Source of the DNA: Escherichia coli
GTDB taxonomy: Bacteria; Pseudomonadota; Gammaproteobacteria; Enterobacterales; Enterobacteriaceae
NCBI RefSeq assembly: GCF_022846255.1
Contig: NZ_AP025682.1
Strand: one strand, 5' to 3'
Length of the DNA: 64,000 bases
Shown: piece by piece, positions 27,149 to 28,067 of the stretch
How the letters are laid out: each line of letters opens with the position of its first letter
Position numbering within the stretch: the stretch's first letter is position 1
Notes under the pieces: generated by a model
Database searches by the model: none
What the model was told of the DNA's origin: nothing
The model's input: the letters and a program-made list of their open reading frames with translations, nothing else
Program-made: the position numbers and the translations under genes

Positions 27149-28067
27149 GAATCTTGACCTTTTTTGCTGTTATCGCCACTCCCTGCCGTGGAAGTCAGCT
27201 TAGAACAATGTACTCCCCCAGGACGGTGTTTTGAAGGTCTGCAGAATAAGATTTTGCCAGAGGGGAAGGCTCGATTGTGCTGTTAATAACTTAATAATGG
27301 CAAAATAATGAGGTGCATATGCTTAATAAGTAATGTTATGTAGTGAATTGTTCTGATTATTAATTGTAAGTGTGGTTTTTTTATCTGTAAGATAATTGTG
27401 TGAAAATGCCTCGTTTAAGAATTCACTACTGAATCGCGATGATGATATTTCCGCATTACGGAGAGTTTAACAGCGTGATGATTTCCGAGGTGTCACAATG
27501 GGGGCAAGGCGTGAAACTATTGTTAAGCGGAATTAATGAATGGGGATGATGCTAATTAATTATTATTTAATATTCAAAAAGGTTTTGTTGTGCTTATTAA
27601 TAATAGAAGATTACTTTGCCTAACATAACATAACTTTGCATCAGATAATTCGCAATGACCCTTATAAATAAAAGGTTTTTGGGGTAAAATGCTTGCATAA
27701 ATGACGGATCCCTGCTCTTGATGCCGCCTCACCATTGCTGTTTGTACGTGTTCGCGTATGACCAGCGATGCTGTACGAGAGTGGAACAAGGACTCACATT
27801 TACATTTATACAAACACGCGCATGTCATAAATAGAAAAGAGTGAGTAACTTAATAGATATGCGATCCCTGAAGATATATTCTGTGATCTACTTCAGGCAT
27901 TATAACGGAACAATGTGAGTCACTTTTTTAGTGCAACTCATATGCATTTTTACTTTCGTCCGGGTTCCGGATGAAACTGCCAGGGAGGCACATTACAAAT
28001 GGAATTGCTTGTTTGTGTGTGCACAGCATTAACCAGCTCAGTATGAGCCGCCAGTAAGTGATAATAT

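Follow-up and report, generated by a model that had tools for sequence, protein, structure and literature searches.

What is held in the 919 bp of AT-rich DNA that separate the divergently transcribed genes alaA and lrhA? Positions given here refer to the window, the 64,000-nucleotide stretch of Escherichia coli DNA that was analysed. In this B2-type strain, the spacer and its neighbours are arranged as follows:

25931..27148, minus strand: alaA coding sequence, a glutamate-pyruvate aminotransferase (405-aa ORF), at the left edge of the spacer; annotated as alaA in MG1655 and IHE3034
27149..28067: the alaA–lrhA spacer, 919 bp
28068..29006, plus strand: lrhA coding sequence, a LysR-type regulator (312-aa ORF), at the right edge of the spacer; annotated in MG1655 and IHE3034
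about 29037, plus strand: 3' end of the lrhA mRNA, a primary Term-seq 3' end at MG1655 2405672(-)

The original prediction described a divergent region without annotated product. Its coordinates and layout were correct: the RefSeq annotations of MG1655 and IHE3034 list no feature inside the spacer, which in K-12 MG1655 is also 919 bp long (2406642..2407560). The spacer is also the longest non-coding interval of the window, as had been claimed, the larger apparent gap at 48454..49564 being menF. It was rightly called strongly AT-rich, its G+C content being 38.4% as compared with 52.2% for the window. We are highly confident that the spacer is an ordinary, largely characterised control region of alaA and lrhA that holds no extra gene. 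Its main elements are already known, namely two promoters and a 371-nt lrhA leader bound by several small RNAs. The spacer is long and AT-rich because two promoters, upstream sites and this long untranslated leader are stacked within it. The dense regulatory input that had been predicted is likewise already documented, in the form of the 371-nt leader with its small RNAs and Hfq, Lrp binding, autoregulation, SELEX peaks and a Tn5 phenotype.

Composition and conserved blocks of the spacer

DNA of this composition might instead have been acquired horizontally and be silenced by H-NS as foreign sequence, rather than serve native regulation. The low G+C content, 31–38% across ~500 bp, is what such an origin would leave. 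By contrast, the divergent layout, spacer size and AT-richness recurred in 78 Enterobacteriaceae genomes from Escherichia, Citrobacter, Salmonella, Enterobacter, Kosakonia, Buttiauxella, Cedecea and other genera, with spacer lengths of 764–1140 bp and G+C fractions of 0.35–0.44, and the region was present in all but one (5,425) of the 5,426 E. coli genomes. Moreover, the window copy of the spacer contained no notable repeats or mobile-element remnants, and the high-affinity H-NS motif had no close match where 1.9 were expected. We therefore give a foreign origin almost no credence. Only recent acquisition is refuted by these data; binding of H-NS may still occur.

In its back-to-back genes, AT-rich spacer, conserved −10 and −35 elements and autoregulated LysR gene, the locus resembles a typical divergent σ70 pair of a metabolic gene and a LysR-type regulator. 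Unlike in the typical pair, the alaA and lrhA promoters lie ~500 bp from each other without overlapping, and there is therefore no sign of the shared operator that is typical of LysR regulators and their targets. To our knowledge, alaA is not a target of LrhA.

Alignment of the 78 genomes revealed four conserved blocks with neutral sequence between them: the predicted alaA promoter with its 52-nt leader, an upstream block at 27509–27578, the lrhA core promoter, and the last 79 nt of the lrhA leader. From left to right, the parts of the spacer are:

27149..27200, minus strand: predicted alaA 5' leader of ~52 nt, from a predicted transcription start site (TSS); 47–53 nt long in all 78 genomes
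27207..27235, minus strand: predicted alaA σ70 promoter, with −35 TTCAAA (27235..27230), a 17-nt spacer and −10 TACATT (27212..27207)
27242..27256, no strand assigned: Lrp-consensus-like site just ahead of the predicted alaA −35, with 2 mismatches to YAGHAWATTWTDCTR and a conservation of 0.68
27259..27508, no strand assigned: neutral central-left block, which holds both ORFs flagged in the original prediction
27509..27578, no strand assigned: conserved upstream block, spanning −188 to −119 relative to the lrhA TSS, TTAAGCGGAATTAATGAAT, with the dyad ATTAA-N7-TTAAT (27555–27571)
27639..27696, plus strand: lrhA core promoter, with −10 TAAAAT (27685–27690), a weak −35-like TTATAA (27662–27667) and a conserved AT-rich upstream part
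27697..28067, plus strand: lrhA 5' UTR, of the published length of 371 nt, making up the right 40% of the spacer

On the alaA side, TTCAAA was present in 71 and TACATT in 74 of the 78 genomes. The two hexamers were separated by exactly 17 nt in every genome; the letters of the intervening sequence were themselves not conserved. We infer from this pattern that TTCAAA-17-TACATT is the alaA promoter, a confident prediction, with its TSS likewise predicted. Two other minus-strand candidates, obtained in a promoter and terminator scan, were poorly conserved and were dropped in favour of this element. The scan itself gave counts at the level of shuffled sequences and missed the real lrhA promoter. 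In the alaA leader, a stretch at 27179–27198 (alaA sense CTGACTTCCACGGCAGGGAG) was nearly invariant: 13 consecutive positions were conserved in at least 95% of the 78 genomes, and 11 E. coli genomes were free of SNPs across the leader. The stretch can fold as a hairpin, ACUUCC-ACGGCA-GGGAGU; according to comparison with shuffled sequences, the fold of the leader gained no stability (z ~0). A literature search for a link between alaA and GcvB or CsrA found none. The promoter prediction and this unexplained invariant element are by-products of the analysis.

The block at 27509–27578 was 0.67–0.86 identical to E. coli in other genera, as compared with ~0.4 at neutral sites, and is a candidate upstream activating region on the strength of this conservation. 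It would probably be where activators of lrhA bind, for example Lrp or LrhA itself. The dyad and the Fis-like matches within it are matches to consensus only, as are the 7 Lrp-consensus matches in the region (3.6 expected). Overall, scans of the spacer for the consensus sequences of IHF, Lrp, RcsB, CRP, H-NS, Fis, ArcA, OmpR and a LysR-type dyad all gave results near chance.

Sequence diversity within the species followed the same pattern. Among 11 E. coli genomes, only block 27259–27508 was as diverse as 4-fold degenerate sites, with a π of 0.047 versus 0.037–0.052 at such sites in the flanking genes. The identity of this block between genera, 0.31–0.46, was also similar to that of 4-fold sites, and the block contained 15 of the 23 SNPs that distinguish the B2 from the K-12 spacer. 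In the same 11 genomes, the diversity of the distal lrhA UTR was ~5 times below neutral and that of the proximal UTR was zero. Together, these comparisons provide a phylogenetic map of the constrained parts across the 919 bp.

The start of the lrhA transcript is anchored by published data. The lrhA 5' UTR is 371 nt long (PMC10578931), and the lrhA part of the published fusion primer SM079 begins at ATAAATGACGG, which corresponds to position 27697. This mapped start yields the long untranslated leader, and the −10 hexamer TAAAAT lies 6 nt ahead of it. A −10 of the form TAnnnT was present in all 78 genomes, most often as TAAGAT (49 genomes), TAGGAT (11) or TAAAAT (8). Transcription from this σ70 promoter starts at 27697. 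In published work, Lrp binds the lrhA promoter, lrhA is subject to positive autoregulation, and the σ32 and σ24 holoenzymes have SELEX peaks inside the spacer; by our conversion of coordinates, the genomic SELEX peak falls at approximately 27695. Finally, Tn5 insertions in this intergenic region have been reported to render ST131 (EC958) hypermotile.

Short ORFs and the question of an independent small RNA

The original prediction raised the possibility of an unannotated small RNA or peptide and pointed to Shine-Dalgarno (SD)-like sequences ahead of two short ORFs:

27319..27333, plus strand: 'MLNK' mini-ORF, with ATG at 27319, stop at 27331–27333 and GAGGTG (27310–27315) ahead of it
27439..27549, plus strand: 24-codon ORF from GTG 27475 or ATG 27478, in frame with a 36-codon ORF from ATG 27439; GGAGAG at 27460–27465

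Both motifs exist. Their number, however, is no more than expected by chance: the spacer contained 11 SD-like tetramers with a start codon 4–10 nt downstream, as compared with 7.8 ± 3.6 in 300 dinucleotide shuffles, of which 64 reached 11. Both ORFs lie on the lrhA strand upstream of the lrhA +1, where no promoter for them is known; the MLNK ORF precedes the lrhA TSS by 378 nt, with no published 3' end nearby, and Term-seq detected no 3' end in MG1655 2407000–2407399. Neither ORF is maintained among close relatives. Depending on the E. coli strain, the MLNK ORF encodes MLNK, MLNN, MLSN or 14 aa; it is broken in E. albertii, where the ATG is lost, and in L003. The ORF from GTG 27475 comprises 4, 7, 22 or 24 codons among 11 E. 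coli genomes as a result of premature stops, and is frameshifted or stopped in E. albertii and in the sister Escherichia L003. Both lie in the neutral block, in which π and the identity between genera, at the level of 4-fold sites, gave no sign of purifying selection. Of the five positions at which the 36-codon ORF differs between B2 and K-12, three are synonymous, which would favour a translated frame, but these numbers are tiny. Eight ORFs of the spacer, including the 24/36-codon ORF and an 84-aa antisense ORF (27574..27828), had no match in Pfam, and the MG1655 RefSeq annotation, which includes validated small proteins, lists nothing here. The flagged short ORFs are chance products of AT-rich non-coding DNA, and recognizing them as such saves follow-up work.

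An independent small RNA fared no better. An Hfq-bound RNA, 'ig-lrhA-alaA', was once listed as intergenic, which would favour a separate gene, but its own authors showed that it belongs to the lrhA mRNA. No terminator-like site was found on either strand of the spacer, the only one being located in alaA, and in the queried parts of the spacer published 3' ends occurred only downstream of the lrhA +1, at 27776 and 28018, inside the lrhA leader. A permissive Rfam search of 26500–29800 (E ≤ 1) returned nothing in the spacer and a single chance-level match outside it, at 29046–29117. Conserved structure was equally elusive: for the proximal leader of 51 genomes, RNAalifold predicted no consensus pairs; a hand-drawn helix, GGAAUUGC/GCAUU, was paired in 65% of cells, with mostly invariant columns; and a second, GCUCA/UGAGC, showed no covariation beyond that of shuffles. 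Nothing on the locus was found in the published PIRT-seq and RIL-seq-sRNA-prediction papers. These data indicate that an independent small RNA or translated peptide is highly improbable. The outcome is essentially the one that the original prediction had named as counting against it, with no transcripts beyond the two 5' UTRs and no conserved short ORFs.

The lrhA leader and its small RNAs

The 371-nt leader is the most interesting part of the spacer and has been dissected since 2014, in detail in 2023–2025. Placing the published Term-seq, Hfq-immunoprecipitation and reporter data on one coordinate frame, a further by-product of the analysis, located the following features:

27733..27776, plus strand: 5'-proximal stable hairpin (27733–27771, MFE fold) and Term-seq 3' end at 27776, defining an RNA of ~80 nt from the TSS
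27974..27988, plus strand: predicted ArcZ pairing site, AAACUGCCAGGGAGG, overlapping the SD-like GGGAGG of a 15-codon upstream ORF (uORF; ATG 27999..TGA 28046)
28018..28030, plus strand: published 3' end at 28018 (−50 from the ATG) and, directly after it, a CACAGC box
28049..28055, plus strand: UhpU pairing site; C28052 (−16) is the base altered in the published compensatory mutant lrhA-M1
28058..28061, plus strand: GUGA core of the lrhA ribosome-binding site, within AAGUGAU, 6 nt before the ATG

According to published reporter data, UhpU, ArcZ and RprA repress an lrhA fusion, the repression by ArcZ being published for lrhA-lacZ, and McaS binds without effect. RprA was enriched 744-fold in MAPS and causes rapid decay of the lrhA mRNA. 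In co-immunoprecipitation with Hfq and Northern blots, bands of 150 and 350 nt were obtained from the lrhA leader, and the full-length mRNA of ~1.5 kb was raised in an hfq mutant. RIL-seq chimeras with lrhA have also been published; McaS gave more of them than any other small RNA, and the authors suggest that it may be inhibited. The strong binding of McaS without repression is unexplained by a simple 'target mRNA' model.

The pairing between UhpU and lrhA was proven by compensatory rescue of UhpU-M1 with lrhA-M1. Comparison of the lrhA-M1 gBlock, GAGCCGCGAGT, with the wild type, GAGCCGCCAGT, located the mutated base at C28052 and suggests the exact duplex CGCCAGU/ACUGGUG. This site was identical in all Escherichia examined. 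The CACAGC box is complementary to the GCUGUGUG seed that is common to RprA and McaS, and reached a conservation of at least 90% across 51 genomes; the RprA duplex of 8 bp had an energy of −13.0 kcal/mol. The best local duplex of processed ArcZ with the lrhA UTR had an energy of −17.3 kcal/mol. The windowed scan yielded plausible sites, but none of its energies was better than those of shuffled UTRs, and the assignment of the sites is therefore based on seed complementarity together with the published mutant. Full-length RNAduplex calculations between small RNAs and the UTR gave long duplexes without meaning and were dropped.

Evolutionary constraint was evident in the region of pairing, including the CACAGC box. 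The last 79 nt of the leader showed no difference between E. coli, E. albertii and L003 (100% identity), had no SNPs in 11 E. coli genomes and were 65–89% identical in other genera, as compared with ~40% at neutral sites; the G, T and G at 28058–28060 were invariant in 51 genomes. The distal two thirds of the leader had no sequence conservation between genera. The length of the leader was nevertheless kept (median ~400 nt, range 333–566), and the UTR as a whole had an MFE z-score of −2.78.

The lrhA UTR acts as a post-transcriptional integration point. UhpU, ArcZ and RprA are loaded by Hfq onto sites in the last ~100 nt of the leader, with the result that LrhA synthesis and mRNA stability are lowered; LrhA itself represses flhDC, rprA and rpoS. 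In being long, Hfq-bound and targeted by several small RNAs, the leader resembles the long small-RNA-hub leaders of rpoS, csgD and flhDC, with which it has some small RNAs in common (ArcZ, RprA, McaS) and which belong to the same motility, biofilm and σS circuit. Unlike rpoS, which is activated by small RNAs, lrhA is repressed by all three effective ones. It further differs from these leaders in that its distal two thirds retain length without sequence conservation between genera, and in that no conserved structure was found.

The small Hfq-bound RNAs of the locus are fragments of the lrhA leader, ~80 and ~322 nt from the +1, and not products of separate promoters. The 3' end at 27776 corresponds to MG1655 2406933(-), an 'orphan' in the published Term-seq classification with 78,199 and 25,150 reads in two conditions; that at 28018 corresponds to 2406691(-), with a Rho score of 1.06 (not significant) and an intrinsic terminator score of 3.75. 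No other published Term-seq 3' ends were present in the queried parts of the spacer, which lie to the right of 27309. The 3' end at 27776 lacks a U tract and is therefore probably a processing site or an exonuclease stop. The discrete, abundant 3' ends within a 5' UTR and the Hfq enrichment of the fragments are reminiscent of the system described in PMC7815308 (2021). By contrast with that system, a function in trans has only been proposed for the lrhA fragments, and their 3' ends are without a canonical terminator, the score at 28018 being borderline.

We considered whether the fragments 27697–27776 and 27697–28018 are trans-acting sponges for McaS, and perhaps for RprA or ArcZ, drawing these small RNAs off further targets, csgD, flhDC and rpoS among them. 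The fragments are abundant in Term-seq (25,000–78,000 reads) and, unlike the mRNA body, enriched with Hfq; McaS, the top RIL-seq partner of lrhA, does not repress it, and its inhibition was suggested by the authors of that study; and the distal UTR is constrained within E. coli. The position of the 322-nt fragment bears on both sides: it ends directly upstream of the CACAGC box, and in stopping just before the box complementary to RprA and McaS it would lack that site. Moreover, the 80-nt hairpin was not conserved outside E. coli, and the fragments could be inert intermediates of decay after cleavage triggered by small RNAs, as has been proposed in the literature. Overall, we regard sponging as unlikely. 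Translation of the 15-codon uORF (MELLVCVCTALTSSV) as the mediator of small-RNA control is less likely still. According to this alternative, ArcZ would block the SD of the uORF (GGGAGG, 27983–27988), resulting in less lrhA translation or in exposure of the leader to Rho or RNase E. The SD-like motif is a good one, located 10 nt upstream of the uORF's ATG, and overlapped by the predicted ArcZ site, and the sequence was invariant in 11 E. coli genomes; moreover, judged by the accepted window for occlusion, the ArcZ and RprA sites (−94..−38) would be too far upstream to occlude the lrhA ribosome-binding site directly. However, the ATG is replaced in many genera (ACG, AAG or AGG) while the surrounding GGAATTGCTT motif is kept, indicating that conservation here is not due to coding, and by our reading of the alignment the ORF differs in length and frame in Salmonella and Citrobacter.

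Recurrent insertion of IS1 and IS5 upstream of the lrhA coding sequence

At least 100 of the complete E. coli genomes (5,426 in total), K-12 W3110 included, had an IS1 or IS5 copy within the promoter or leader of lrhA. This recurrence was new to us. Insertions were concentrated in the regulatory DNA as compared with its neighbours: for segments of ~307 bp, 55 genomes had no intact match to 27455–27760 and 53 had none to 27761–28067, whereas the corresponding numbers were 2 for 27149–27454, 0 for the alaA coding sequence, 2 for the lrhA coding sequence and 1 for the lrhA–nuoA spacer. In 82 genomes, IS1 was present within 650 bp upstream of position 28052, 16 nt before the lrhA ATG. These copies occurred in both orientations and had at least 25 distinct junction distances, of which 440, 446 and 467 recurred in both orientations, consistent with independent events. 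One cluster of natural sites is defined as follows:

27584..27623, no strand assigned: natural IS1/IS5 sites clustered to the right of the upstream block and ahead of the lrhA core promoter

Within the cluster, SBF22 carries IS1B with a target-site duplication at 27585–27593, EC6868 carries IS5 at CTAA 27620–27623, and E308 has an IS1 junction at 27620; the recurring junction distances of 440, 446 and 467 belong to this cluster as well. In several events (E308, 730V1, TW10573, ZH193), the promoter was deleted or split from the leader, and several alleles have lost the promoter or the +1; expression of the repressor is therefore probably lowered in these strains.

The region upstream of flhDC is a hot spot at which IS1 and IS5 insertions raise motility in K-12 and in natural isolates. 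The lrhA control region resembles it in the recurrence of IS1 and IS5, in both orientations, in AT-rich DNA of a motility regulator, in laboratory and natural strains alike. The molecular effects would be opposite: insertions activate the flhDC operon, whereas at lrhA the expression of a repressor would be lowered. The predicted phenotype, more motility, is the same.

We tentatively propose that the promoter-plus-leader half of the spacer (~27425–28060) is a natural 'tuning knob', adjusted by repeated, independent insertion of IS1 and IS5 and with the insertions kept because they lower or rewire LrhA output; we hold this possible, if somewhat more doubtful than not. Some of the insertions separate the upstream block from the core promoter, others interrupt the leader, and others are accompanied by promoter deletions. 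If the proposal is true, flhDC-dependent motility would rise and the fimbrial, RpoS and CRISPR programmes would shift, making the locus the repressor-side counterpart of the flhDC hot spot. The addition to it that the fragments ending at 27776 and 28018 sponge McaS or RprA in trans is less supported. Differences in IS content at lrhA could explain why strains vary in motility, in the level of LrhA and in CRISPR activity that depends on LrhA; they also matter when W3110-derived strains are compared with MG1655-derived strains.

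Position, composition and ancestry of the spacer

The 919-bp spacer, 27149..28067, separates two divergent genes:

25931..27148, minus strand, alaA, left neighbour of the spacer
28068..29006, plus strand, lrhA, right neighbour of the spacer

The window shares ∼99.9% identity with E. coli of phylogroup B2 (e.g. IHE3034, UM146 and APEC O18). In K-12 MG1655, the spacer is equally 919 bp (2406642..2407560), so window (w) and MG1655 (m) coordinates interconvert as m = 2434709 − w. RefSeq has no feature inside the spacer in either MG1655 or IHE3034. As originally predicted, the spacer is AT-rich (38.4% G+C versus 52.2% for the window, with a minimum of 31–34% at 27200–27700) and is the window's longest non-coding gap: the one larger apparent gap, 48454..49564, is menF, masked by a crude ORF filter. 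Overall, as a divergent control region the spacer is ordinary and well studied, with two modest leads left: an IS hot spot and an invariant element in the alaA leader.

Scanning one genome per species yielded 80 loci with LrhA relatives (74–95% identity). alaA lay divergently upstream of lrhA in 78 of them, and the spacer measured 764–1140 bp, mostly 900–1010 bp, with 35–44% G+C. Because its size, AT-richness and divergent gene order are kept across the Enterobacteriaceae, we rejected foreign DNA as its origin; the long AT-rich spacer is ancestral to the family. About one third of the 4-fold sites of alaA and lrhA in locus L003, labelled E. coli SCPM-O-B-8794, differ from E. coli, indicating that this genome is probably another Escherichia species. 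Locus L062, labelled Chryseobacterium sp. 18061, is typical of Enterobacteriaceae and thus looks mislabelled or contaminated.

A MAFFT alignment revealed four conserved blocks: 27149–27258, 27509–27578, 27639–27690 and 27989–28067. Between genera, 27259–27508 and 27697–27988 diverged as fast as 4-fold degenerate sites in alaA and lrhA. Measured from the aligned +1, the leader of lrhA had a median length of ∼400 nt (range 333–566), and its distal part was unalignable between genera. Within E. coli, eleven genomes sampled from across the identity range aligned without indels. Nucleotide diversity was 0.037 and 0.052 at 4-fold sites of lrhA and alaA, respectively, a neutral 0.047 in block 27259–27508, 0.008 in the distal leader, 0 in the proximal leader and 0.004 in the alaA-proximal block. 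Judged against the 4-fold level, the distal leader is thus under constraint in E. coli, though unconserved between genera. The lrhA–nuoA spacer (29170–29476) had a bimodal identity to the window, with 4,373 genomes at ≥99%, 1,043 at 90–95% and almost none between, pointing to two old haplotypes upstream of nuo.

Short ORFs and the alaA promoter

The motifs cited in the original prediction are present: GAGGTG precedes ATG 27319, opening an 'MLNK' ORF, and GGAGAG precedes GTG 27475/ATG 27478. To evaluate them, we counted SD-like tetramers followed 4–10 nt downstream by ATG, GTG or TTG on both strands. The spacer held 11 such pairs versus 7.8 ± 3.6 in 300 dinucleotide-preserving shuffles, 64 of which had at least 11. 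The SD-like motifs and mini-ORFs are thus no more than chance. Among the 11 E. coli genomes, the ORF opened by ATG 27319 read MLNK, MLNN, MLSN or 14 residues, and that opened by GTG 27475 had 4, 7, 22 or 24 codons. In E. albertii and L003, the former lacked its ATG and the latter was stopped or frameshifted. Pfam matched none of eight ORFs in the spacer, one of them an antisense ORF of 84 codons, and published Term-seq data (PMC7815308) contained no 3′ end at MG1655 2407000–2407399, the stretch with both flagged ORFs. The proposed unannotated small RNA or peptide is unsupported. The 'MLNK' ORF differs between strains because of variation at 27325–27331, where the 11 genomes have six segregating sites in 7 bp (27325, 27326, 27327, 27329, 27330 and 27331); this small patch is either hypervariable or the result of a multi-nucleotide replacement.

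On the alaA side, three elements were located:

27207–27235, minus strand, predicted alaA sigma70 promoter (TTCAAA, 17-nt spacer, TACATT), from a phylogenetic footprint
27179–27198, minus strand, near-invariant 20-nt alaA-leader element in 78 Enterobacteriaceae genomes, alaA sense CTGACTTCCACGGCAGGGAG
27242–27256, Lrp-like candidate site just upstream of the predicted promoter

TTCAAA occurred in 71 of 78 genomes and TACATT in 74; their spacing was exactly 17 nt in all 78, its sequence being variable. This footprint predicts an alaA start near 27200 and a leader of 47–53 nt. The leader contains 13 consecutive positions that are ≥95% conserved (TTCCACGGCAGGG). The element can pair as a hairpin (ACUUCC/GGGAGU, loop ACGGCA) whose stability was not above shuffles. 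We found no literature on this element or its function.

The lrhA promoter and leader

Published data place the lrhA +1 at 27697, exactly where the lrhA part of the PBAD-lrhA-lacZ recombineering primer begins (ATAAATGACGG).

27685–27690, plus strand, lrhA −10 hexamer TAAAAT, from the sequence ahead of the +1

The hexamer reads TAnnnT in 78/78 Enterobacteriaceae genomes. The dense regulatory input originally proposed is right, though already known from the literature on small RNAs, Hfq, Lrp, autoregulation and SELEX. PMC11331407 cites binding of Lrp to the lrhA promoter, lrhA autoregulation is positive, and sigma32 and sigma24 holoenzymes bound the spacer in genomic SELEX. Tn5 insertions in the intergenic region rendered the ST131 strain EC958 hypermotile.

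The PBAD-lrhA-lacZ fusion is repressed by UhpU, and compensatory mutations proved the pairing. The base mutated in lrhA-M1, identified by setting its published gBlock against the wild type, is C28052, 16 nt before the ATG. The UhpU site was identical in 816/816 E. albertii strains (2025 study). Genomes of the Citrobacter freundii group (L010, L012, L013, L016, L018) naturally carry G at the equivalent position (CCGCGAGT versus E. coli CCGCCAGT), such that UhpU–lrhA pairing is probably absent from them. ArcZ and RprA also repress the fusion; McaS gave the most RIL-seq chimeras with lrhA yet had no effect on it. RprA affinity purification enriched lrhA 744-fold, and RprA triggered rapid lrhA mRNA decay (PMC5861431). 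Hfq co-immunoprecipitation yielded an 'ig-lrhA-alaA' RNA (bands of 150 and 350 nt), which the same authors showed to be part of a ∼1.5-kb lrhA mRNA that accumulates without Hfq (PMC4152368).

Term-seq 3′ ends on the lrhA strand (PMC7815308) were as follows:

27776 (MG1655 2406933), 80 nt past +1, 25,000–78,000 reads
28018 (2406691), 50 nt upstream of the ATG, with a non-significant Rho score of 1.06 and an intrinsic-terminator score of 3.75
29037 (2405672), lrhA mRNA end

The same data had no further end at 2406700–2406899. The leader folded somewhat better than shuffles (z = −2.78), with a long predicted hairpin, 27733–27771, directly ahead of the 27776 end. As there is no U tract there, we infer that this end arises from processing or from an exonuclease stop. 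The second end, 28018, falls within a predicted hairpin and directly precedes a conserved CACAGC box complementary to the GCUGUGUG seed common to RprA and McaS. Its position fits the published proposal that sRNA-guided cleavage yields the Hfq-bound leader fragments as by-products (PMC4152368). RNAalifold returned no conserved structure in the leader, two specified helices had no convincing covariation, and energy-only sRNA site predictions were no better than for shuffled leaders. Among sRNA sites in the leader, only that of UhpU is experimentally anchored. A 15-codon uORF, preceded by GGGAGG, is invariant in E. coli, but its ATG (27999) is missing in many genera even though the surrounding motif persists, making it an improbable candidate for translation.

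Just downstream of the lrhA mRNA 3′ end (∼29037), the minus-strand Rfam match at 29046–29117 (Aggregatibacter sRNA 41) was at chance level (19.6 bits versus a gathering score of 97). An 'orphan' Term-seq 3′ end lies at ∼29627, immediately upstream of nuoA (PMC7815308).

IS1 and IS5 insertions at the lrhA control region

IS1 insertions in the spacer were first met during strain sampling. We searched complete E. coli genomes with ∼307-bp queries, whose match is split by an insertion of >∼650 bp.

Complete E. coli genomes without an intact match
alaA CDS segment: 0
27149–27454: 2
27455–27760: 55
27761–28067: 53
lrhA, first 307 bp: 2
lrhA–nuoA spacer, AT-rich segment: 1

The recurrent IS1/IS5 zone, 27425–28060, covers the lrhA promoter and 5′ UTR; the four equal-sized control segments were affected in 0–2 genomes. 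Chimeric IS1-end/lrhA queries located an IS1 end ≤650 bp upstream of 28052 in 82 genomes (28 in one orientation, 54 in the other), at no fewer than 25 distinct distances. Sources of the carriers include humans, pigs, poultry, cattle, frogs and river water, and the K-12 W3110 lineage is among them. At least three further genomes have IS5 in this region. AT-richness alone was rejected as the cause of this bias: the left third of the spacer, which evolves neutrally and is just as AT-rich, has hardly any insertions. We infer that target preference is combined with selection favouring a changed, probably lower, level of lrhA expression.

Exact mapping identified simple insertions and several alleles that also delete the lrhA promoter or more:

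27585–27593, IS1B, SBF22
27620–27623 (CTAA), IS5, EC6868
27923–27933, IS1A, W3110 and derivatives
28052–28060, IS1, ZH193, 8 nt before the ATG
27621–27836, IS-associated deletion, E308
27541–27927, IS-associated deletion, 730V1
27535–28358, IS-associated deletion, TW10573
27316 to elaD, spanning the nuo operon, IS1-bounded deletion, SCPM-O-B-12142 (L088)

The last of these has apparently eliminated lrhA together with the entire nuo operon (NADH dehydrogenase I); at its 27316 junction, the alaA upstream region is joined to an elaD remnant.
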